From the NCBI GenBank assembly GCA_033759635.1, contig GCA_033759635.1_4528.1: 64,000 bases of DNA. The stretch is one strand, 5' to 3'. The notes under the pieces were generated by a model. The model had not been told where the DNA came from. It worked only from the letters and a program-made list of their open reading frames with translations, and did no database searches. The translations under genes and the position numbers were made by a program. This DNA comes from a phage. This document shows positions 15,051 to 60,528 of the stretch, piece after piece (the stretch's first letter is position 1; each line of letters begins with the position of its first letter).

Positions 15051-15524
15051 ATGTTATTATCTGGCAAATTATACAAAGAAGAAAAACAAAAATTTTATGA
15101 TGCACAGAACGGTAAGTGTCCTATTTGCCACCGTGAATTAGACCCTGATGTTCAAGGTAACCATCTTGACCACGACCACGAGTTAAACGGGCCAAAAGCC
15201 GGTAGAGTTCGTGGATTACTCTGTAATCTGTGCAACGCAGCAGAAGGCCAAATGAAGCATAAGTTCAACCGTTCTGGTCTTAAAGGTCAAAACGTTGATT
15301 ACCTCGAATGGCTTGAAGCTCTTCTTGCTTATTTGAAACAAGATTATTCTGATAATAATATCCATCCTAATTTTGTTCCAGACAAAACTAAAGAGTTCTC
15401 AAGACTAGGTAAAGAGGAAATGATGGCTGAGATGCTTCAAAGAGGATTTGAATATAATGAATCTGATACTAAAACACAATTAATAGCTTCATTCAAAAAG
15501 CAGCTTAGAAAGAGTTTAAAATGA
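15051..15524 (+). CDS. 49: endonuclease VII (Holliday junction resolvase)
   Basis: 157 aa; Zn-binding CPICH..x..CNLCN; near-identical to recalled T4 gp49. Confidence 0.9.
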   Translation: MLLSGKLYKEEKQKFYDAQNGKCPICHRELDPDVQGNHLDHDHELNGPKAGRVRGLLCNLCNAAEGQMKHKFNRSGLKGQNVDYLEWLEALLAYLKQDYSDNNIHPNFVPDKTKEFSRLGKEEMMAEMLQRGFEYNESDTKTQLIASFKKQLRKSLK

Positions 15525-17338
15525 AAATTGAAAAAGAAATTGAAGGATTAATTCATAAAACTAATAAAGATCTTTTAAACGAGAATGCTAATAAAGATTC
15601 TCGTGTTTTTCCAACTCAACGGGACCTTATGGCTGGTATTGTGTCTAAGCACATTGCCAAAAATATGGTCCCGTCTTTTATTATGAATGCGCATGAAAGC
15701 GGAATCATTCACATGCATGATATTGATTATTCTCCTGCTCTTCCGTTTACTAATTGTTGTTTAGTCGATTTAAAGGGGATGCTTGAGAATGGATTTAAAT
15801 TAGGCAATGCTCAAATTGAAACGCCTAAATCGATTGGTGTTGCTACTGCAATTATGGCACAAATTACTGCACAAGTTGCTTCCCATCAGTATGGCGGAAC
15901 TACATTTGCGAATGTCGATAAAGTTCTTTCTCCTTATGTTAAACGTACATACGCTAAACATGTTGAAGATGCAGAAAAATGGCAAATACCAGACATTCTG
16001 AATTATGCTCAATCTAAAACAGAAAAAGACGTATACGATGCATTCCAAGCTTATGAATATGAGGTAAATACTCTTTTTAGTTCAAACGGTCAAACTCCTT
16101 TTGTTACCATAACATTTGGAACAGGAACTGATTGGACTGAACGAATGATTCAGAAGGCAATTCTTAAAAACCGCATTAAAGGTCTTGGTCGTGATGGAAT
16201 AACTCCTATTTTTCCTAAACTTGTTATGTTTGTTGAAGAAGGTGTTAATCTTTATAAAGATGATCCGAACTATGATATTAAACAACTTGCGTTAGAATGT
16301 GCAAGCAAAAGAATGTATCCTGACATTATTTCGGTTAAGAATAATAAAGCTATTACTGGTTCTTCAGTTCCGGTTTCTCCAATGGGCTGCCGTAGTTTCT
16401 TGAGTGTATGGAAAGATTCGACTGGTAATGAAATTCTTGATGGACGCAATAATCTTGGTGTTGTAACATTGAATCTTCCTCGCATCGCGTTAGATTCTTA
16501 TATTGGAACACAGTTCAATGAACAGAAATTTGTTGAGCTATTTAATGAACGAATGGATCTGTGCTTTGAAGCCTTGATGTGTAGAATTAGTTCCTTAAAA
16601 GGAGTTAAAGCGACTGTTGCTCCTATTCTTTACCAAGAAGGTGCATTCGGGGTTCGTCTTAAACCTGATGACGACATAATTGAGTTATTTAAAAACGGTA
16701 GAAGTTCAGTGTCTTTAGGATACATTGGTATTCACGAATTGAATATTCTTGTCGGACGTGATATTGGACAAGAAATTTTAACTAAAATGAATGCTCATCT
16801 TAAACAGTGGACCGAAAGAACTGGATTTGCTTTTAGTTTGTATTCTACTCCTGCTGAAAACTTGTGTTATCGTTTCTGTAAACTCGACACAGAAAAATAT
16901 GGAAGTGTAAAGGATGTTACTGATAAAGGCTGGTATACTAATAGTTTCCATGTTTCAGTAGAAGAAAATATTACTCCGTTTGAAAAGATTTCTCGTGAAG
17001 CGCCATATCATTTCATTGCGACAGGTGGTCACATTTCTTATGTTGAACTTCCTGATATGAAAAATAACCTAAAAGGTCTTGAGGCTGTATGGGATTATGC
17101 TGCACAACATTTAGATTATTTTGGTGTTAATATGCCAGTAGATAAGTGTTTTACATGTGGAAGTACCCATGAAATGACTCCTACTGAAAACGGATTTGTT
17201 TGTTCAGTTTGTGGAGAAACTGATCCTAAAAAGATGAACACAATAAGAAGAACATGCGGCTATCTGGGAAATCCGAACGAACGCGGATTTAATCTCGGTA
17301 AAAATAAAGAAATAATGCATAGGGTTAAACACCAATGA
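15521..17338 (+). CDS. nrdD: anaerobic ribonucleoside-triphosphate reductase
   Basis: 605 aa; glycyl-radical region RTCGYLGNP near C-terminus; ATGA overlap with gene 49; continuous ORF. Confidence 0.9.
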   Translation: MKIEKEIEGLIHKTNKDLLNENANKDSRVFPTQRDLMAGIVSKHIAKNMVPSFIMNAHESGIIHMHDIDYSPALPFTNCCLVDLKGMLENGFKLGNAQIETPKSIGVATAIMAQITAQVASHQYGGTTFANVDKVLSPYVKRTYAKHVEDAEKWQIPDILNYAQSKTEKDVYDAFQAYEYEVNTLFSSNGQTPFVTITFGTGTDWTERMIQKAILKNRIKGLGRDGITPIFPKLVMFVEEGVNLYKDDPNYDIKQLALECASKRMYPDIISVKNNKAITGSSVPVSPMGCRSFLSVWKDSTGNEILDGRNNLGVVTLNLPRIALDSYIGTQFNEQKFVELFNERMDLCFEALMCRISSLKGVKATVAPILYQEGAFGVRLKPDDDIIELFKNGRSSVSLGYIGIHELNILVGRDIGQEILTKMNAHLKQWTERTGFAFSLYSTPAENLCYRFCKLDTEKYGSVKDVTDKGWYTNSFHVSVEENITPFEKISREAPYHFIATGGHISYVELPDMKNNLKGLEAVWDYAAQHLDYFGVNMPVDKCFTCGSTHEMTPTENGFVCSVCGETDPKKMNTIRRTCGYLGNPNERGFNLGKNKEIMHRVKHQ

Positions 17339-17805
17339 ATTATGATAGATTTTATCCTTGCGATTTTGTGAATGGCCCTGGTTGCAGGGTCGTTCTTTTC
17401 GTTACAGGTTGTTTGCATAAATGCGAAGGGTGTTATAATAAATCAACATGGAATGCTAGAAATGGTATTCCATTCACTGGTGAAACACTAGAACAATTAA
17501 TTGAATGTTTGAATAATGATTATATAGAAGGATTAACTATAACCGGAGGAGACCCTCTCTATCCTGATAACCGAGATGTTATTCACTCTGTAGTTCAAAC
17601 TATTAAAAATCTTTATCCCAATAAAAGCATTTGGTTGTGGACAGGATATACGTTTGAAGATATTAAACAACTAGAAATGCTTAAATATGTTGATGTTATT
17701 ATTGATGGGAAGTATGAGAAAAATCTTCCGACCAAAAAACTGTGGCGAGGATCAGATAATCAGCGACTTTGGTCAAATACCGATGGGGTGTGGAAACATG
17801 ATTAA
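17335..17805 (+). CDS. nrdG: anaerobic RNR activating enzyme (radical SAM)
   Basis: 156 aa; Cys-rich N-terminal region (FVTGCLHKCEGCYNK) consistent with the activase Fe-S site; ATGA overlap with nrdD. Confidence 0.85.
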   Translation: MNYDRFYPCDFVNGPGCRVVLFVTGCLHKCEGCYNKSTWNARNGIPFTGETLEQLIECLNNDYIEGLTITGGDPLYPDNRDVIHSVVQTIKNLYPNKSIWLWTGYTFEDIKQLEMLKYVDVIIDGKYEKNLPTKKLWRGSDNQRLWSNTDGVWKHD

Positions 17806-32837: not shown

Positions 32838-33473
32838 ATGAAAACTACTCCTATTACTATCGCTATTGACGCAATCATAAAACAAGCTTCTTCTTTGGCC
32901 GCTATGGCCAAAGTAATTAGTCAAAACCCTGCTCGTTATAATGCTATTCTAGAAACTCTTCGACGCCCAGGACTGAGTAATTATGAAAGTCGTGTAATTA
33001 TTACAGGTGTCGGTAAGAATGCTAATATCGCAACTAAAGCTTCCGAGACTTTTGCTTCATTGGGTATTCCTAGCATGTATTTGAACACCGGGCATTATTC
33101 TCATGGTGACGCAGGATTTATTGCACCTAATGATGTATTAGTTCACATCAGTCGTTCTGGTAAGACTGAAGAAATGATAGGTGTTGCTAAACATCTTCGT
33201 ATGATTCGTCCTCAGGTTAAACAGATTCTGTTACATTGTAACCCTGACATTCCACAAGAATACGAAGCTCTTTTTGATTATACGTTCTGTACCGGTATCG
33301 CGGTAGAAGTTGACGAGAACTCTTTAGCTCCGACAATGTCCACTACATTGTTGTTAGCGCTTATCGATACGTTCGCTATCAACCTTTCGTCTGAACGTGG
33401 ATTTACCTCTAATGATTTCCTTAAGTTCCATCCAGGCGGTGCACTAGGTGCCATGTTACGAGGCGAGCAATGA
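32838..33473 (+). CDS. SIS-domain sugar-phosphate isomerase, arabinose-5-phosphate isomerase-like (no CBS domains)
   Basis: 211 aa; VIITGVGKNANIA...FASLGIPSMYLNTGHYSHGDAGFIAPNDVLVHISRSGKTEE...SLAPTMSTT...HPGGALG closely parallels the KdsD/KpsF SIS domain. Confidence 0.7.
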   Translation: MKTTPITIAIDAIIKQASSLAAMAKVISQNPARYNAILETLRRPGLSNYESRVIITGVGKNANIATKASETFASLGIPSMYLNTGHYSHGDAGFIAPNDVLVHISRSGKTEEMIGVAKHLRMIRPQVKQILLHCNPDIPQEYEALFDYTFCTGIAVEVDENSLAPTMSTTLLLALIDTFAINLSSERGFTSNDFLKFHPGGALGAMLRGEQ

Positions 33474-33654: not shown

Positions 33655-35343
33655 ATGAAAAAAGCTGTTATTCTTGGTGCTGGATTAGCAACTCGTTTAT
33701 ATCCAATTACTCACCATATTCCTAAGGTGCTTGTTAACTATAAACAAGACACTATTCTGAGCAATTTGTATACAATTTATTCTGACCTTGGCGCAGATGA
33801 AATTATTGTAGTAGTTCATTCAAAATTTGCTGAAACTGTTCGAGCTTATTGTGAGCAAGAAGGGTTCAATGTGACTATTCGTACAGTTGATGAAGCGTAT
33901 GGTTCTGCTTATGCTCTTGCTAAATTACACAAAGATTTAGACGGCCATAACGTAATTGTTAACTGGTGTGATATTATTCCTGATTTTGGTTCATGGTCTT
34001 GGAATGTTAACGCAATCTATGTTAAGGGTGATGAATGTCGATATAATTTCGATGGTGAAAATATCACTAACGTAGGTTCAACTGGTGGTAATGTTGTAGG
34101 AATTTATCAGTTCAAAGACTGGGAATTCTATATGGGTTCTACTGATGAGGAAATTCATGAATACTGCAAAGGACGTGATTTCGTAGAATTCCTTTACAGC
34201 GGCGCATTCAATAAATCAGAGCTTATGAATATCATCGACCTTGGTGATATGCCTAAACTTGAAAAAGCTCATGAAGTTCGTGAACTTAATCGTAGTTTTA
34301 ATGCAGTTGAAATTGGTGAAGAAACGGTAACAAAGATTGCTTTAACAGAACAGGGCGTTGCACTTCAAAAAGATGAAGTCAATTGGTATAAGAAAGTTAA
34401 ATCAGATTCAGTTCCACGGATTGTAAGTTATCATCCTGGCGGCCACTTTATTATGGAACGCATTAAAGGTAAGCCGGCATTTGAATATATTAAATCCAAA
34501 TCAAGTCTTGCTCGTCCACAAATTGTTGATGCAATTTTAGATGCACTGAAATTCAGCACAGACATGTATTTTGTAAGTCCTGAAACTGTTCGTCGTGATT
34601 TCACTAAAGAATTCTATACGAAAGTTATTGATCGTTGTGAAAGTATTCAACCATTGATTGATTCATTTGGTAAAATCACACATGTGAACTACACTAAGAT
34701 TGGACGTCTGAAGCCAATGCTGAAGCAAGCTTTAGAACATCTTATTCGTTATCATACCCGTTCTCAGGGACAGTACTCTGTTATTCATGGTGACCCGAAC
34801 TTCAGTAATACTATGATTACTGATAACGGCGAAGTCAAGTTTATCGACCCTCGTGGATATTTTGGCGAAACCAAGATTTACGGGCCAAAATTGTACGATG
34901 AAGCTAAAGTGCTTTATGCTGTTTCAGGTTATGATGAATTCAATGCTAATCCGACCTGGGGACAGTTTACTATTGATGAAACAACTTGTAATGTGACTAT
35001 TAACATCAATCCATTAATTTACAAATATGGAAAGATGAGTTCGTTTAACGAGTATCATCATTTGGCGGTGGCAATTATCTGGATTGCATTAGGTGGTTAT
35101 TTCAAGAATAATCCACTTAAAGCGGTAGCCGCATATTATAAAGGTATGGAACTTCTGACTAAGCAATTACGCAACATGGGCCGTGTACTTCAAGACGGCT
35201 CTATTAGTTATGACGTAGCAGGACCTGTAACGGCTACTCTGATTACAAAAAATCCTGGTAAATGGGTACTAACTGATAAAGAAACTGGTGTTTCCTATCG
35301 TCCAATCGGTGGCGATATCACTCATCAATGGGAACGAATCTAA
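33655..35343 (+). CDS. bifunctional sugar-1-phosphate nucleotidyltransferase / APH-fold anomeric sugar kinase
   Basis: 562 aa; N-terminal ILGAGLATRLYPIT..PKVL NTP-transferase motif; C-terminal Brenner motif VIHGDPNFSNTMI and IDPRGYFG kinase motif. Confidence 0.7.
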   Translation: MKKAVILGAGLATRLYPITHHIPKVLVNYKQDTILSNLYTIYSDLGADEIIVVVHSKFAETVRAYCEQEGFNVTIRTVDEAYGSAYALAKLHKDLDGHNVIVNWCDIIPDFGSWSWNVNAIYVKGDECRYNFDGENITNVGSTGGNVVGIYQFKDWEFYMGSTDEEIHEYCKGRDFVEFLYSGAFNKSELMNIIDLGDMPKLEKAHEVRELNRSFNAVEIGEETVTKIALTEQGVALQKDEVNWYKKVKSDSVPRIVSYHPGGHFIMERIKGKPAFEYIKSKSSLARPQIVDAILDALKFSTDMYFVSPETVRRDFTKEFYTKVIDRCESIQPLIDSFGKITHVNYTKIGRLKPMLKQALEHLIRYHTRSQGQYSVIHGDPNFSNTMITDNGEVKFIDPRGYFGETKIYGPKLYDEAKVLYAVSGYDEFNANPTWGQFTIDETTCNVTININPLIYKYGKMSSFNEYHHLAVAIIWIALGGYFKNNPLKAVAAYYKGMELLTKQLRNMGRVLQDGSISYDVAGPVTATLITKNPGKWVLTDKETGVSYRPIGGDITHQWERI

Positions 35344-35729
35344 TGCACCGTGTAGAAAACATGCTTAATCTTTGTTTTGATGTCGATGATTGTATAACAG
35401 AGTGGAATAACAATCGTGATTACGTGAACTTCAAACCAGACGTCGAAATGGTGTCTGCCATTAATGCCCTGTATGATGCAGGGCATACCATAACGCTTTA
35501 CACTGCTCGTGGTATGAAGTCAGTAGGTCCTGGTCGTATAGCAATTGACATTCTCCCAAGTCTGATTCAGAACTTGGCAAACATTGGCTTGAAGTACCAT
35601 AATTTGCTAACACATAAACCAGTATATGATTGGATTATCGACGACAAAGCTATGCGTCCTGACGAATTCAAAGCTCTTATGAATAAAGGCGAATTCGAAA
35701 CATTTAAATCATATAAACCGAATCTATAA
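35343..35729 (+). CDS. HAD-superfamily phosphatase-like protein
   Basis: 128 aa from ATG 35343; motif I-like FDVDDCIT, TLYTAR, WIIDDKA. Confidence 0.45.
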   Translation: MHRVENMLNLCFDVDDCITEWNNNRDYVNFKPDVEMVSAINALYDAGHTITLYTARGMKSVGPGRIAIDILPSLIQNLANIGLKYHNLLTHKPVYDWIIDDKAMRPDEFKALMNKGEFETFKSYKPNL

Positions 35730-35783: not shown

Positions 35784-36944
35784 ATGAATACTTTTAAAAT
35801 CGGAACGAATTTTGATTTAGCTCTTCTTGATAAAATCGTAGAGCTCAATAAAACTTATCCTAATAGCTTGATAAACGAAGTATACGGCTCTACAAGAGAA
35901 ATGGCTTTTGTAGCAGCCAGACCTGATTTTAGGCTTCCTGACGTTGACAAAAAGATGTTAGAAGATTACGTTAAACGTTGTAACGAATTAGGTATTTGCT
36001 TTAACTATACACTCAACACGATAAATCCTGGTTCAAAAAGAGAACTAGTCGAGTGGAAGAAGAAAGCTATTCAGGATTATGTTCAGTATCTTTGGTCAAT
36101 AGGCGTATGGCGTATTACTATCGCTAACCCTGTTGTTATGGAAATTGTTCGTGAAGTCAATAAAGACATTGAGATTGAAGTTTCAACAATTCTACATGTC
36201 GATGCTGTAACTCAAATAAAATACTTACATGACCAATACAATATCAAAAAGGTCTGCTGTGGAATTCATAAGAACCGTTCAGTTTCTTTCCTGAAGCGTG
36301 CAGCAGAGTTTTGCAATAAGAACAATATAATATTTGAAGTTCTTGTAAATGAGTTCTGTTCTAATGCTGGTAAAGGGTATACAACACATTGTAGTTATCG
36401 TGACTCTTGCTATATTTTCCATAGTACTGATGTTACAGCTGATGATGCTAAATCCTTAAATGGATATCCAATGCAACACTGCATTAAAGCTCGTGATACA
36501 GACCCATTTAACTGGTTGAGAACTCGTTTTGTTCGTCCTCAAGATTTGAAACTTTATAATGATATTGGTATCACTCAATTCAAAGTTTCAGGACGTACAG
36601 GTAGCACAGACTACATTTTGAAAGTTCTTGAAGCATACGCTTCTGAAAAGTTTGAAGGTAATTTGTTAGAACTGTGGAAGCCTTTAGAGACTATTTTCAC
36701 TCTTGAAAATGAAACTGAGTTTTCACATACAGTAAATATTGAAACCTCTTTGTTAGATGGCTTTTTAGAAAAAAGGTGGTTCAGACATCCAGATTTTGAT
36801 TGTGCTAATGAAATCTGTGGATCAACGTGTACATATTGTGAAAGATATTATAAACGTCAATTATCTAAAAACGGGTTAGCAGAAAACTCTATATCTATTA
36901 TTGATATAACTAACTCTGATGACGCTCTGAGGTACCCGGAATGA
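35784..36944 (+). CDS. U32-family (peptidase U32 / RlhA-TrhP-UbiU-like) protein, putative Fe-S enzyme
   Basis: 386 aa; FNYTLNT and ITIANPVVMEIVREV..DIEIEVST resemble the U32 barrel; C..SYRDSCY resembles the U32 Cys signature; extra C-x4-C-x3-C-x2-C cluster near C-terminus; recalled motifs only. Confidence 0.5.
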   Translation: MNTFKIGTNFDLALLDKIVELNKTYPNSLINEVYGSTREMAFVAARPDFRLPDVDKKMLEDYVKRCNELGICFNYTLNTINPGSKRELVEWKKKAIQDYVQYLWSIGVWRITIANPVVMEIVREVNKDIEIEVSTILHVDAVTQIKYLHDQYNIKKVCCGIHKNRSVSFLKRAAEFCNKNNIIFEVLVNEFCSNAGKGYTTHCSYRDSCYIFHSTDVTADDAKSLNGYPMQHCIKARDTDPFNWLRTRFVRPQDLKLYNDIGITQFKVSGRTGSTDYILKVLEAYASEKFEGNLLELWKPLETIFTLENETEFSHTVNIETSLLDGFLEKRWFRHPDFDCANEICGSTCTYCERYYKRQLSKNGLAENSISIIDITNSDDALRYPE

Positions 36945-37180
36945 TTTCTAGAAAAACTTTTAATCACCAACTTAATGAAGAGATTTTGACTATTAAACTG
37001 AACACTAACGAACAAATTCTTAAAAAGGCCCTTATGGGCCTGTTTGAAACTAAAGCGGCTAAAGCGATTAAAGAACCTGTTCAACTAGAATACTATGCCG
37101 ACGCATTCCTTCATAGTGTCCTTGGAAGTATTGATGCCGAAGCTCTACGTTATATCAACATCGCTAAGAAATTCAAATAA
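36941..37180 (+). CDS. hypothetical protein (79 aa)
   Basis: ORF track; ATGA overlap. Confidence 0.5.
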   Translation: MISRKTFNHQLNEEILTIKLNTNEQILKKALMGLFETKAAKAIKEPVQLEYYADAFLHSVLGSIDAEALRYINIAKKFK

Positions 37181-37203
37181 GCTTTATGAATTGAGTATAT
37201 AAT
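37179..37203 (+). promoter_or_regulatory. candidate middle promoter upstream of gene 42
   Basis: MotA-box-like AAGCTTTA 37179-37186, about 11 nt, TATAAT 37198-37203. Confidence 0.4.
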
Positions 37204-37221
37204 AACTGTATTGAGGTAAAC

Positions 37222-37938
37222 ATGGGAAAACATAACACAATGAAATATATTAAAGCCGCAGATTTTCAATCCGCATTTAAAGCTGTCAATCGTGAAATTT
37301 TAGAAAACCCGGAATTCGTAACTGATTCTCGTATTGGACGTTGTAATGAAATTGGGTCTATGACAGTAGTTGTTGACACTCCATCATCATTCAAAATGAC
37401 CGACCCACGTATTAATCGCATCTCTTATGAATATGCTGAAGATTTCTGGAAGTTTATGATTTCTGGTGGTACTGATGCAGAAGAAGCATTTAAGGCATAT
37501 CCTAATGTCGCTAAATTTATTTCTAAACCAAAATCAGATGTTTTGCCTGCAAACTTCAACACTTTCTACGGTCCTCGCATTGCGGCCCAATTACCAGCTC
37601 TTCTAAAAGAACTTAAAGAGAAACCTAACTCTCGAAGAGTTGTGTTCCAAATTCTAGAAAGTTCTGATCAGGCTTTGCTTGATTCGGACGAAACACTTGA
37701 ATATCCATGTACTGACTCGGTAACTTATTATATTCGTGATGGTAAGCTTTATACTCACTGTCATATGCGTTCCCAGAACTGTGCTGTTGTTATGCAGTTG
37801 GATTTTTATCTCCAAGGAAAATTACTTCATTATATCGCTAACGAATGTGGTGTAGAAGTTGGTGATTATACTCATACCATGGTAAGTGCCCATGTGTTTG
37901 AACGTGATTTTGATTATGTTAAAGGATTCCTTGACTAA
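37222..37938 (+). CDS. 42: dCMP hydroxymethylase (thymidylate synthase fold)
   Basis: 238 aa; active-site region YPCTDSVTYYIRDGKLYTHCHMRSQN parallels recalled T4 gp42 (MCTNTVQYLIRD..NMRSND); position between 43 and uvsX. Confidence 0.75.
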   Translation: MGKHNTMKYIKAADFQSAFKAVNREILENPEFVTDSRIGRCNEIGSMTVVVDTPSSFKMTDPRINRISYEYAEDFWKFMISGGTDAEEAFKAYPNVAKFISKPKSDVLPANFNTFYGPRIAAQLPALLKELKEKPNSRRVVFQILESSDQALLDSDETLEYPCTDSVTYYIRDGKLYTHCHMRSQNCAVVMQLDFYLQGKLLHYIANECGVEVGDYTHTMVSAHVFERDFDYVKGFLD

Positions 37939-38838: not shown

Positions 38839-39387
38839 ATGGCTAAAATTATTTTAGTAGATGGCCCGGATAATGCCGGTAAAACAACTTTCATTAATGA
38901 CATAATGGAAATTAGTGAAAGATATGTAAAGATTGATTTCCCTAAACGAACAGTTGATGGACGTTTCGATGTTAAGTCTCGAAATGAAGTTGGTTGTTTC
39001 GAAACGATGTTGAATTATTTAGACCCTACTAAGATTTATCTGTTAGACCGTGGATATATTAGTAACTGGGTTTATGGACGTATTCGACAAGATGCGGACT
39101 CGGTTCTTGACGTTTATGAACAGGACTATGTTCGTCTTTGCCAAAACCATGATGTGTTCACAATTATTTTAACACGTAACGAAATGACTGAAAGTTTTGA
39201 AGACGACCTTATTACTTTGTCTTCATTCGGTTTTAATACAGTCATTTCACATTTTGAAGAGTTTGCAATTCATAACAAAATCCAAACATATCAATTACTT
39301 AATCATGATGGTGCTAACAAAGTTATAGGATTTAATGCAAGCGAACGTAATGGTTTGATTACAGAAATCATCAAATGGGCTCGTTAA
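38839..39387 (+). CDS. P-loop nucleoside/nucleotide kinase-like protein
   Basis: 182 aa; Walker A LVDGPDNAGKTT; LDRGYIS resembles the DRY/DRS motif of dNK/TMPK kinases. Confidence 0.5.
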   Translation: MAKIILVDGPDNAGKTTFINDIMEISERYVKIDFPKRTVDGRFDVKSRNEVGCFETMLNYLDPTKIYLLDRGYISNWVYGRIRQDADSVLDVYEQDYVRLCQNHDVFTIILTRNEMTESFEDDLITLSSFGFNTVISHFEEFAIHNKIQTYQLLNHDGANKVIGFNASERNGLITEIIKWAR

Positions 39388-47166: not shown

Positions 47167-47254
47167 AATATCTCCTTAGTTACCTATTATTTATTACGCT
47201 TTATAAAATTAATGTTAGAATTAACTTTCTTATACTGAATTGAAAGGAAAAATA

Positions 47255-47776
47255 ATGGCACACTTTAACGAATGTTCACAACTTATTTCTGGTGTTGATA
47301 AAGCAGAAGAAGCTTATTTTAATGCTCTGATTCACGAAGATAAAGACCCACTGCAGGTAATGCTTGATATGCAGAAATCTTTACAGGTTCGTCTGGCTAA
47401 TGACAAACCTGAACATAACAAACATCCTGATGAATTGGCCACTGCTGGTGATGTTGTTGATTGGCTGCGTAATCAGAAAGATTATATTGATGATGAATTC
47501 CGTGAACTGTTGACTTCACTTGGTGGTATGAGCAATGGTGAAAAAGCCGCCAGCAGTGTATGGAAGCCTTGGAAAGCACAACATGCTGAATATCGAAATC
47601 GTCGTATCGATGAACTGTCTCCTGAAGACCAGCTTGAAATTAAATTTGAAATGATTGATATTCTGCATTTCGTTCTAAATATGTTCCAGGGTCTAGGTCT
47701 TTCGGCTGAAGAAATCTTTAAACTTTACTACTTGAAAAACCAACACAACTTTGAACGTCAGGATAATGGGTACTAA
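47255..47776 (+). CDS. 56: dCTPase / dCTP-dCDP pyrophosphatase gp56 (MazG-like)
   Basis: 173 aa from ATG 47255; MAHFNEC...DPLQVMLDMQ...ETAGDVV.W.R.QKD.IDDEFRELLTSLG matches recalled T4 gp56. Confidence 0.85.
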   Translation: MAHFNECSQLISGVDKAEEAYFNALIHEDKDPLQVMLDMQKSLQVRLANDKPEHNKHPDELATAGDVVDWLRNQKDYIDDEFRELLTSLGGMSNGEKAASSVWKPWKAQHAEYRNRRIDELSPEDQLEIKFEMIDILHFVLNMFQGLGLSAEEIFKLYYLKNQHNFERQDNGY

Positions 47777-59427: not shown

Positions 59428-60528
59428 ATGAAAGTTATGTTTATCCCATCTCGCGCAGTCCCATTTAACCCAGAACGTGTACAAGGTGGTCTTGAAGCAG
59501 TACATTTAAATGTGTTGAAATATCTTGTGTCCATCGGTGCTGATATTGATTATATCGGCTTTGATAATGACACATTTGGTGATTGGAAGGTTAATCATCA
59601 TCCTGTTGGTCATCTGACTAAATTCAGTCTAGGTATGAGTTATACTATGGCTCGTAAGATTGTTGAACTAGCCGGCATCCATGAATACGATTTCGTTGTT
59701 ACTATGGAACCGACTAAACTAACCGTTCAGGCAATTAAAGACGCAGGTCTCTCTAAAGTTCATAAGAATTTTATGGCAACACCATTTGAACCGGTATCTC
59801 GTGGCATTGTTCAAATTTGGGACCAGACTATTCAAATTCATAAGAACGGTGGTAAGAGTTATGCTCCTACTAAAGCCTTCCGTGAATTTGAACGTAAATA
59901 TTGTTATATGACTTCAGGTCTGACTGACAAAATTGATTATGATTATTGGCGAGCAAATCCGTTGTTTGAAGCCGAAGATTATCCGGTTATTTGTTTGAAT
60001 GAGAAACATGAAGTTCTTCCGGCGACTGATCTGATTATTAGTGCACAACGTTATGACACTAAAATGCGTCGTACTGATGTTGCTCTTGAAGCGATTAAAG
60101 CACTAGGCGAAAATGGTATTGGTTATTGTCCTAGTAAATGGGCACCACCGGCTAAGTATCCTGTTATTATTGATGCTCCACACAGTGAAATCATGGAACG
60201 TCTTAAAACAGCTAAAGCACTTATCAATACGTGTCCTGACACGGGTACGGTAGAGAATAGTTCTATTGAAGCCATCTCTAAAGGTGTCCCTGTGATTCAG
60301 TTAGTTTTTAAGGATTATCCGCACGCGACATTCGAATATGACCCAGATACTGTGCGTGTAGAAATTGATTCCTCTACTCCTAAGAAAGAAGTAGTTGCGC
60401 TTTACACAAAAGCTGTATTAGAATTCACTGACACATACGAAGCTCGAGTTAAACGTGCTGAAGCAGTATGGAAGAAGTATAACCGAGATGCGGTTGTTGC
60501 GATGTGGGATAAAATCTTCACAGCGTAA
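59428..60528 (+). CDS. GT-B fold glycosyltransferase (GT4-like), candidate DNA hydroxymethylcytosine glycosyltransferase
   Basis: 366 aa; N-terminal MKVMFIPSRAVPFNPERVQGGLEAV resembles the GT4/GT5 GGL(E/A) motif; lies between gene 39 and rIIA.1/rIIA. Confidence 0.65.
   Translation: MKVMFIPSRAVPFNPERVQGGLEAVHLNVLKYLVSIGADIDYIGFDNDTFGDWKVNHHPVGHLTKFSLGMSYTMARKIVELAGIHEYDFVVTMEPTKLTVQAIKDAGLSKVHKNFMATPFEPVSRGIVQIWDQTIQIHKNGGKSYAPTKAFREFERKYCYMTSGLTDKIDYDYWRANPLFEAEDYPVICLNEKHEVLPATDLIISAQRYDTKMRRTDVALEAIKALGENGIGYCPSKWAPPAKYPVIIDAPHSEIMERLKTAKALINTCPDTGTVENSSIEAISKGVPVIQLVFKDYPHATFEYDPDTVRVEIDSSTPKKEVVALYTKAVLEFTDTYEARVKRAEAVWKKYNRDAVVAMWDKIFTA

Follow-up and report, generated by a model that had tools for sequence, protein, structure and literature searches.

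The DNA analysed here, called the window in the following, is a stretch of 64,000 nucleotides from a phage (contig GCA_033759635.1_4528.1 of NCBI GenBank assembly GCA_033759635.1), and the subject of this work is a gene in it that encodes a 386-residue protein of the U32 family (Table 1). The open reading frames (ORFs) around this gene form a T4-like phage set with gp46, gp45, gp44/62, RegA, the gp43 polymerase, UvsX and gp41. At the DNA level the U32 gene is 98.7-99.6% identical to the best-matching Mosigvirus genomes (Shigella phage Shf125875 and Escherichia phages), and its product shares 383 of 386 residues with RB69p050 from phage RB69. The gene is intact in all 222 phage records carrying it, where one stretch of the record accounts for at least 80% of the query.

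An earlier note on the window, made by a model from the letters alone, had placed the U32 gene within a DNA-modification locus, and the neighbours listed in Table 1 bear this out. It had also named a deoxycytidine monophosphate (dCMP) hydroxymethylase as a neighbour, which was wrong, because the gene in question encodes a close relative of RB69 gp48, a 5-hydroxy-dCMP synthase (PMC13326640). The DNA of RB69 contains mono- and di-arabinosylated 5-hydroxycytosine (5hoC), with an ether linkage and no arabinosylated 5-hydroxymethylcytosine (Lee et al. 2026, NAR, PMC13326640). According to the same paper gp48 makes 5-hydroxy-dCMP with bound flavin and with an oxygen atom that was traced to 18O2; the flavin is bound loosely and reducing equivalents are needed, and gp48 together with a deoxynucleoside monophosphate (dNMP) kinase is sufficient in E. 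coli. The route from ribulose-5-phosphate to UDP-arabinofuranose is covered by the SIS isomerase, the kinase/nucleotidyltransferase and the small phosphatase (PMC13326640). RB69p050 appears in that paper only in its Table 1, as a “Sugar or heterocycle reductase” with fold matches to the structure 5d88, and is absent from the main text. The gene, its annotation and a published fold similarity to U32 were thus already known. Since the window also encodes the anaerobic ribonucleotide reductase NrdD/NrdG, anoxic replication is part of the lifestyle of this phage, while the sole proven hydroxylase of the locus needs O2.

Table 1 Features of the window (positions without a handle) and of U32 loci in other contigs (positions after a locus handle).
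Feature	Position	Strand	Remarks
U32-family protein, 386 aa	35784..36944	+	ATG start; RB69p050 orthologue; proposed cytosine C5 hydroxylase (prephenate-dependent, O2-independent)
Putative metal site 1, within U32 core	36357..36482	+	codons for C192, C203, C209, C233
Putative metal site 2	36801..36839	+	C340-x4-C345-x3-C349-x2-C352
79-aa ORF, conserved small helical protein	36941..37180	+	PHROG 8601; start overlaps U32 stop (ATGA)
SIS-domain arabinose-5-phosphate isomerase, RB69p055 type	32838..33473	+	Pfam SIS; PHROG 5670; PMC13326640
Bifunctional sugar kinase and nucleotidyltransferase, AfhE-like, intact 562 aa	33655..35343	+	Pfam NTP_transferase, weak kinase-family matches; PMC13326640
Small phosphatase, AfhF-like, RB69p051 type	35328..35729	+	PHROG 1238; no Pfam match; HAD-like per PMC13326640
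ThyA-family 5-hydroxy-dCMP synthase, flavin/O2-dependent	37222..37938	+	236/238 identical to RB69 gp48 (238 aa compared)
DNA arabinosyltransferase 1, RB69p046:47 type, intact 299 aa	37938..38837	+	PHROG 3891; synteny with RB69; PMC13326640 Table 1
Thymidylate-kinase-like nucleotide kinase, RB69p045 type	38839..39387	+	PHROG 761; PMC13326640 Table 1
Anaerobic ribonucleotide reductase NrdD (605 aa) and NrdG (156 aa)	15521..17805 (NrdD 15521-17338, NrdG 17335-17805)	+	PHROG 487, 1012 bits; PHROG 626, 241 bits
Promoter-like sequence	37181-37204	+	between 79-aa ORF and ThyA homologue
178-aa NTP pyrophosphohydrolase	47240-47776	+	candidate dCTPase
366-aa ORF	59428-60528	+	PHROG 8302
DAHP-synthase-chorismate-mutase fusions	L036 8411-9433; L039 7302-8357; L040 8332-9387		one gene from U32
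Kinase, glycosyltransferase and U32 cluster	L007 6474-14179		similar cluster in L033
dCMP deaminase upstream of U32	L001 9447-11086; L005 7504-9083		also in L047
Four-gene cassette	L067 3044-7137		also in L064, L066, L062/L002, L046
Nucleoside island	L002 10001-17428		

U32 membership and the two cysteine sites

The earlier note had proposed U32 membership from motifs, and both the profile search and the fold confirmed it. Peptidase_U32 (PF01136) matched residues 94-286 with 42.2 bits against a gathering cut-off of 22.4 (E = 7.3e-11) and was the sole Pfam domain found in the protein, so that the U32 core alone was detected, and PHROG 5757 (“peptidase”) aligned along the full length. A sequence search of the Protein Data Bank (PDB) with the protein gave nothing at E <= 1. 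The AlphaFold2 (AF2) model, built from a 41-sequence alignment, had a predicted local distance difference test score (pLDDT) of 91.3 and a predicted template modelling score (pTM) of 0.90, and it has the U32 barrel fold of the solved U32 structure 5d88. The motifs named in the note were located at residues 73-79 (FNYTLNT, with F73, T76 and N78 invariant in the 41-sequence alignment) and 202-210 (HCSYRDSCY).

A profile search of 1.84 billion cluster representatives gave 465 clusters at E <= 1e-30, and conservation was scored in 120 full-length distant representatives that are 24-47% identical to the window protein. In the first site, within the core, C203 and C233 are present in 100% and C192 in 98% of the representatives, and position 209 alternates between Cys (60%) and His (39%), a swap that is expected of a metal ligand. 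The C-terminal C-x4-C-x3-C-x2-C cluster, which had been singled out in the note as an extra feature, is real and by its conservation a hallmark of the subfamily: C340, C345, C349 and C352 are invariant in the 41 sequences and present in 93-95% of the distant representatives. The non-conserved cysteines C158 and C177 are found in 58% and 14% of the representatives, respectively. It is clear from these figures that the conserved cysteines are far above chance. The 386-aa protein is a member of a distinct, largely phage-borne U32 subfamily with two conserved sites of four putative metal ligands each. Iron-sulphur (Fe-S) clusters are presumed at both sites, and zinc is a possible alternative for site 2. 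The CX3CX2C part of the C-terminal cluster was also considered as the mark of a radical SAM enzyme and rejected as such, as PF04055 gave no match at E <= 0.1, the motif lies at the extreme C-terminus, and a fourth conserved cysteine lies four residues upstream.

Database annotations such as “peptidase” and “collagenase-like protease” would make the protein a collagenase-type U32 protease. These names are inherited from the family, whose characterised members RlhA, TrhP and UbiU/V are hydroxylation factors, and eight conserved Cys/His ligands in a nucleotide-metabolism context fit a protease badly, so we find this explanation scarcely credible.

For comparison with the characterised enzymes each of the four E. 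coli U32 proteins (RlhA, TrhP, UbiU and UbiV) was aligned with the subfamily profile by hhalign. The best and sole substantial match was RlhA (YdcP), the 5-hydroxycytidine (ho5C) synthase for C2501 of E. coli 23S rRNA, with a probability of 83.5% and E = 8e-6 over 195 columns (RlhA residues 46-258). In this alignment the phage HCSYRDSCY stands opposite LCVAYSGQCY, and C203/C209 correspond to Cys169/Cys176 of RlhA, the conserved U32 cysteine pair that is also found in UbiU (C169/C176). Both of these cysteines are essential for ho5C formation by RlhA, and its C-terminal cysteines are needed as well (PMC5727448). TrhP (YegQ) matched with a probability of 10% and in its N-terminal half only (residues 10-157), with no full-length correspondence. 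UbiU reached 18.5 bits with the NCBIfam model NF047963 against a cut-off of 440 and a probability of 4% in hhalign, and neither UbiU nor UbiV gave a meaningful alignment to the phage profile. The traits of the RlhA subfamily, i.e. the DUF3656 domain and a length of about 650 aa, are absent from the 386-aa protein, in which the Pfam scan gave PF01136 only. By these profile comparisons the phage protein is a U32 member, yet orthologous to no characterised subfamily.

The likeness to RlhA consists of the U32 core, the essential cysteine pair, further C-terminal cysteines and, as proposed below, C5 hydroxylation of cytosine that requires prephenate and Fe-S clusters. However, RlhA has 653 aa, carries DUF3656 and acts on a ribosomal precursor, whereas the phage protein is a barrel with a compact CX4CX3CX2C tail, the third and fourth ligands of its site 1 sit elsewhere, and its gene context points to deoxynucleotides. 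UbiU and UbiV resemble it as small U32 proteins with a small-molecule substrate that are paired with the aerobic flavin hydroxylases UbiI/H/F (PMC10990095); they carry [4Fe-4S] clusters, and 18O labelling has identified prephenate as their oxygen donor (PMC10990095). In contrast to them, the phage protein comes without a UbiT-like partner and has another arrangement of cysteines. Mk0906 from Methanopyrus kandleri (PDB 5d88) differs in being only 14% identical, in its length of 247 aa and in having no C-terminal cysteine motif. Prephenate is needed for RlhA (PMC5727448) and TrhP (PMC6599085) to function, and it has been suggested that all U32 proteins share one mechanism (PMC10990095).

The homology to RlhA and TrhP could also mean that the phage enzyme is an RNA hydroxylase that makes ho5C or 5-hydroxyuridine (ho5U) in host or phage tRNA or rRNA and tunes translation during infection. 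Pfam detected no RNA-binding or accessory domain, E. coli already has RlhA and TrhP, and the gene lies consistently within clusters for dNMP metabolism and DNA glycosylation, so an RNA substrate has in our opinion a very slight probability.

Genes next to U32 in other loci

The loci sampled were 44 from viruses and 8 from species-representative genomes, and a number of long metagenomic contigs were used in addition. For 34 dereplicated U32 loci outside the Straboviridae, an iterative profile census recorded the genes within 10 kb. A ThyA-type 5-hydroxy-dCMP synthase was found within +-10 kb of U32 in none of the 34, and a canonical thymidylate synthase in one. What did recur near U32 was a Tmk-like kinase (21/34 loci), a homologue of RB69 arabinosyltransferase 1 (19/34), an AfhE-like enzyme (11/34), a SIS isomerase (9/34), a 3-deoxy-D-arabino-heptulosonate 7-phosphate (DAHP) synthase with or without chorismate mutase (8/34) and a dCMP deaminase (7/34). 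Several loci read kinase, glycosyltransferase, U32, where the Straboviridae have ThyA, glycosyltransferase, kinase. As the functions for a glycosylated 5-hydroxypyrimidine are all there except the hydroxylase, the U32 gene, conserved and unassigned, fills the place of the hydroxylase. Elsewhere the nucleotide-level neighbours of U32 are NT5C, a deoxynucleoside kinase, a nucleoside deoxyribosyltransferase and guanylate-kinase-methyltransferase fusions.

These loci bear on two other explanations. The U32 protein might assist the ThyA-type hydroxylase as a redox partner or in another accessory role, for instance as an Fe-S flavin reductase that feeds gp48; the loose flavin binding of gp48 and its demand for reducing equivalents would suit such a partner, and so would the adjacency of the two genes in Straboviridae and the presence of two putative Fe-S sites. 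Against it, U32 occurs without a ThyA-type gene within 10 kb in 34/34 non-Straboviridae loci, gp48 and a dNMP kinase are enough in E. coli, and the linkage to chorismate mutase described below would be left unexplained, which makes the partner role very unlikely. Alternatively the substrate could be a sugar or some other small molecule on the way to arabinosylation, and the protein a reductase, dehydratase or epimerase, for instance. This would match the published label in Table 1 of PMC13326640, the TIM-barrel fold common to many sugar enzymes and the position of the gene between the sugar-activation genes and a glycosyltransferase. The pathway to UDP-arabinofuranose is, however, fully covered by three other enzymes, and Acinetobacter phages make tri-arabinosyl-5hoC (PMC13326640) without U32. 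In addition, U32 is found with a glycosyltransferase and a kinase and without sugar-activation genes in four loci (L028, L032, L041 and L048) and with dCMP deaminase alone in two (L001 and L005), and a sugar enzyme again leaves chorismate mutase unexplained. We therefore consider a sugar substrate unlikely. The earlier note had left it at modification of “a sugar or base”, and of these two the context favours the base, by C5 hydroxylation with prephenate, and disfavours sugar chemistry.

The connection to prephenate came from the genes next to U32 in relatives of the window phage. Enterobacter phage Entb_45 and Serratia phage LC53 each have, overlapping the stop codon of U32, an ORF annotated as chorismate mutase. 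In agreement with the annotation, Pfam CM_2 scores these two ORFs at 40.9 and 44.6 bits, above the cut-off of 27, and many NCBIfam chorismate mutase models match them as well. The product of chorismate mutase is prephenate. Of 22 Straboviridae loci examined 18 have U32, and in 15 of these a chorismate mutase follows U32 as the next gene or the next but one and lies ahead of the ThyA homologue. By tblastn the phage chorismate mutase was present in 51 phage records; among the 40 matches listed, all were Straboviridae of Enterobacterales or Shewanella, and the gene was always in or beside the slot between U32 and ThyA.

Unrelated metagenomic phages with PolIII-alpha replicases have, in this order, genes for SIS, an AfhE-like enzyme, a Tmk-like kinase, a fusion of DAHP synthase and chorismate mutase, HAD and U32. 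The fusions lie one gene from U32 and match PF00793 with 85-89 bits and PF01817 with 72-86 bits, with the chorismate mutase domain C-terminal; phages that bear them appear to push the shikimate pathway towards prephenate. In two more loci a gene of the DAHP synthase family adjoins U32, and stand-alone chorismate mutases adjoin it in contigs from Erysipelotrichales and Romboutsia. Altogether a chorismate mutase or a DAHP synthase fusion stands beside U32 in three unrelated phage lineages. There are about 62,000 cytosines in a genome of about 168 kb with 37% G+C. A burst of about 100 phage would, by rough arithmetic, use up several million prephenate molecules, a demand that would make supply enzymes carried by the phage understandable.

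In the window the corresponding slot is occupied by the 79-aa ORF alone, which is translationally coupled to U32 through the ATGA overlap and conserved in Mosigvirus. This ORF was rejected as a chorismate mutase, including a degenerate one, since neither CM_2 nor any NCBIfam model matched it at E <= 10 and hhalign against the phage chorismate mutases gave 0.15%; its positional counterparts in Entb_45 and LC53 are AroQ chorismate mutases and it is not. Homologues of the 79-aa protein sit between U32 and chorismate mutase in L013, L019, L022 and L026, and four genera hold both genes (e.g. Pectobacterium phage PM2 and Yersinia phage TG1). Mosigviruses thus appear to have lost chorismate mutase. 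The N-terminal INHxxNEL motif of the 79-aa ORF appears fused to chorismate mutase in phages of the LC53/EcS1 type. A single-sequence AF2 model of the small protein was a helical hairpin of poor quality (pLDDT 69), and it might be an accessory factor of U32.

A proposed anaerobic route to 5-hydroxy-dCMP

Family membership, fold, cysteine conservation and gene context were established above, and from here we infer the substrate, the oxygen donor, the independence of oxygen, the Fe-S content and the physiological role. The U32 protein is probably a prephenate-dependent, O2-independent cytosine C5 hydroxylase, most likely with dCMP as substrate, and the comparative evidence thereby favours the direction of the earlier note, which had pointed to the O2-independent hydroxylases among U32 members. 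In the proposed reaction the hydroxyl group of prephenate would be transferred to C5 of cytosine without O2, with 5-hydroxy-dCMP, phenylpyruvate and CO2 as products. The pyrimidine ring would first be oxidised by two electrons that leave via the presumed Fe-S metal sites, and decarboxylation of prephenate would then deliver hydroxide to C5 and release phenylpyruvate (scheme after PMC10990095); the extra C-terminal site may prolong the electron relay towards an acceptor. dCMP would be hydroxylated before it is phosphorylated and incorporated into DNA. We favour dCMP because the neighbouring genes act at the dNMP level and because the accessory domains of the RNA-acting relatives are absent. On this proposal the U32 protein would be an anaerobic twin of the adjacent flavin/O2-dependent 5-hydroxy-dCMP synthase, as TrhP is to TrhO, and it could keep up the supply of 5-hydroxy-dCTP, which is the sole cytosine nucleotide used and the acceptor in arabinosylation, when infection takes place in the anoxic gut.

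The same prephenate-dependent C5 chemistry could instead act on dC in the newly made DNA polymer. RlhA and TrhP, both characterised pyrimidine-hydroxylating U32 enzymes, act on polynucleotides, and RlhA is the best profile match. Yet the phage protein is a U32 core only, with neither DUF3656 nor the extra domains of TrhP, and its neighbours in the different loci (the Tmk-like kinase in 21/34, dCMP deaminase, NT5C, deoxynucleoside kinase and Gmk fusions) work on dNMPs. Furthermore, an apparent phage NTP pyrophosphohydrolase of the dCTPase type would leave the DNA without dC. We hold the polymer to be an unlikely substrate and keep it as a rival to dCMP.

A close parallel to a pair of routes is the formation of ho5U34 in tRNA by TrhP and TrhO. 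There, one 5-hydroxypyrimidine is made both by a prephenate-dependent U32 enzyme and by an O2-dependent enzyme unrelated to it, and the distribution of the two is mirrored by that in the phages. Both enzymes are present in, and useful to, organisms with oxic and anoxic niches, and TrhP is required in anaerobes (Sakai et al., PMC6599085). The parallel differs in that the O2-dependent partner in the phage is a flavin-binding ThyA homologue and TrhO is a rhodanese, and in that a DNA precursor is proposed as substrate in place of tRNA. RB69 gp48 and DLP3 gp80 would share with the U32 protein the proposed product, and they share with it the cluster, the downstream kinase, the polymerase and the arabinosyltransferases, whereas gp48 has an unrelated fold, a flavin cofactor and oxygen from O2 (18O2 labelling).

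The distribution of the two genes agrees with this proposed division of labour in part. The ThyA-type synthase was found in 374 phage records, among them 57 of Acinetobacter and 20 of Rhizobium phages, and U32 in 222 phage records, all with at least 80% identity. The latter belong to phages of Escherichia, Klebsiella, Shigella, Serratia, Proteus, Yersinia, Enterobacter, Providencia, Edwardsiella and a few other genera including Shewanella; Acinetobacter and Rhizobium are not among the ten most frequent U32 genera, the lowest listed count of which is 3, so each has at most two records. The U32 gene is missing from Acinetobacter phage Maestro and from Pseudomonas phage PspYZU05, in which HAD directly abuts ThyA and the cluster is otherwise intact. 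Among the phages sampled, none of those of obligate aerobes had U32, and all of the 8 matches in species-representative genomes were in anaerobic lineages (Erysipelotrichales, Lachnospiraceae, Romboutsia twice, a Bacillota metagenome-assembled genome, BRC1, Tannerella and the cultured Phocaeicola faecalis). U32 is an accessory module, consistent with gp48 sufficing in air.

A number of observations weigh against the proposed function. Dhakavirus JS98 has no U32 module either, nor has Kosakonia phage 305, which shares its genus with the U32-bearing Entb_45. Some phages of facultative anaerobes thus lack it, and the gene is dispensable under at least some conditions; a strict rule of U32 in all phages of facultative anaerobes and in no others was ruled out by these two. 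The correlation with the host therefore runs one way only, and the phyletic counts are confounded by phylogeny, the records being non-independent. Within the genus of the window phage, Mosigvirus, there is no chorismate mutase, so the prephenate link here rests on relatives and supply by the host enzymes PheA/TyrA would be needed. The match to RlhA reached a probability of only 83.5%, those to TrhP, UbiU and UbiV were weak, and the third and fourth ligands of site 1 sit elsewhere than in UbiU/UbiV. The search for ThyA-type genes around U32 was limited to 10 kb on either side, and U32 hydroxylases have never yet been reconstituted in vitro (PMC10990095). The papers that could be read contained no link of this gene to prephenate or anaerobiosis, and subscription papers may address the gene.

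A broader reading is that phages have recruited prephenate-dependent U32 chemistry for 5-hydroxypyrimidine deoxynucleotides, as the sole route in phages of obligate anaerobes and as one of two pathways, next to the ThyA type, in phages with facultatively anaerobic hosts, RB69 among them. The obligate anaerobes meant are Bacteroidales, Clostridia and Erysipelotrichales, whose phages would have DNA with glycosylated 5-hydroxycytosine or 5-hydroxyuracil, and some of these phages bring along DAHP synthase and chorismate mutase, which would feed the enzyme. For the recruitment and for the DNA of the anaerobe phages alike we regard the case as evenly balanced.

The earlier note expected a function new to phages. 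The gene itself had been noticed before, as RB69p050 in Table 1 of PMC13326640, and what would be new is the proposed function with a DNA precursor as the substrate class, the viral setting, chorismate mutase and DAHP synthase as physically linked genes, and the second cysteine site. Nothing relevant turned up in the literature on U32 in connection with phage 5hoC, or on chorismate mutase together with U32 and bacteriophages. If the proposal is right, this would be the first DNA-precursor substrate for U32 hydroxylases. Phages of the RB69 type replace every cytosine by 5-hydroxycytosine and then arabinosylate it, the sole enzyme shown for the base needs O2, and an O2-independent hydroxylase would close the gap between gut hosts and an anaerobic ribonucleotide reductase on one side and an O2-requiring synthase on the other. 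It would predict oxygen- and prephenate-dependent phenotypes of relevance for gut phage therapy, and would point to widespread 5-hydroxypyrimidine hypermodification in uncultured phages of anaerobes. A small soluble U32 enzyme that acts on nucleotides would also be the first tractable in vitro system, in which the mechanism with prephenate as oxygen donor could be tested directly.

Further observations in U32 loci and in the window

Some loci differ from the arabinosylation cluster in their gene content. In L007 and L033 a Tmk-like kinase, an Aat1-like glycosyltransferase, U32, a TAGT-like glycosyltransferase and a dUTPase/dCTP deaminase are followed farther on by a UDP-galactopyranose mutase, and with no ThyA-type hydroxylase nearby this cluster predicts a galactofuranose-type glycosyl-5-hydroxypyrimidine in the DNA of an uncultured phage. 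The dCMP deaminase gene lies directly upstream of U32 in L001 (a 466-kb contig), L005 and L047, all very large contigs of the PolIII-alpha type, in which Tmk, UDG and MazG-like genes are also near U32. It is a possibility that some U32 members hydroxylate dUMP instead of dCMP.

A chromosomal cassette in anaerobes consists of GP88 (PF17338), a guanylate-kinase-methyltransferase fusion, a protein of about 265 aa and U32. It was found in L067 (Phocaeicola faecalis, amid ordinary chromosomal genes), L064, L066, L062/L002 and L046, and its four genes suggest that a nucleotide may be hydroxylated and then methylated, perhaps to a 5-methoxypyrimidine. In PADLOC neither U32 nor the 79-aa ORF nor the cassette partners matched a defence system, beyond a weak methyltransferase match. 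An island in L002 holds U32, NT5C, a PnuC-like transporter, a deoxynucleoside kinase, an AlaRS-like fragment, a radical-SAM/SPASM protein, a second U32-like protein and a nucleoside deoxyribosyltransferase, and looks like a pathway for modification or salvage of nucleosides. A radical-SAM/SPASM gene is near U32 in the 466-kb contig L001 as well.

In the window a scan of the cluster for sigma-70 promoters and terminators found 21 against 25.8 expected, which is not above chance. By eye, the sequence between the 79-aa ORF and the ThyA homologue (AAGCTTTA, with TATAAT about 10 nt later) resembles a T4 middle promoter with a MotA box. The 366-aa ORF occupies the place expected for the second arabinosyltransferase (RB69p003 type), and the 178-aa NTP pyrophosphohydrolase is probably a dCTPase, as which RB69p028 is listed in PMC13326640. 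Finally, the kinase/nucleotidyltransferase and arabinosyltransferase 1 are single ORFs here and split in the RB69 RefSeq record (RB69p052/053 and RB69p046/047), in agreement with the sequencing errors reported in PMC13326640.

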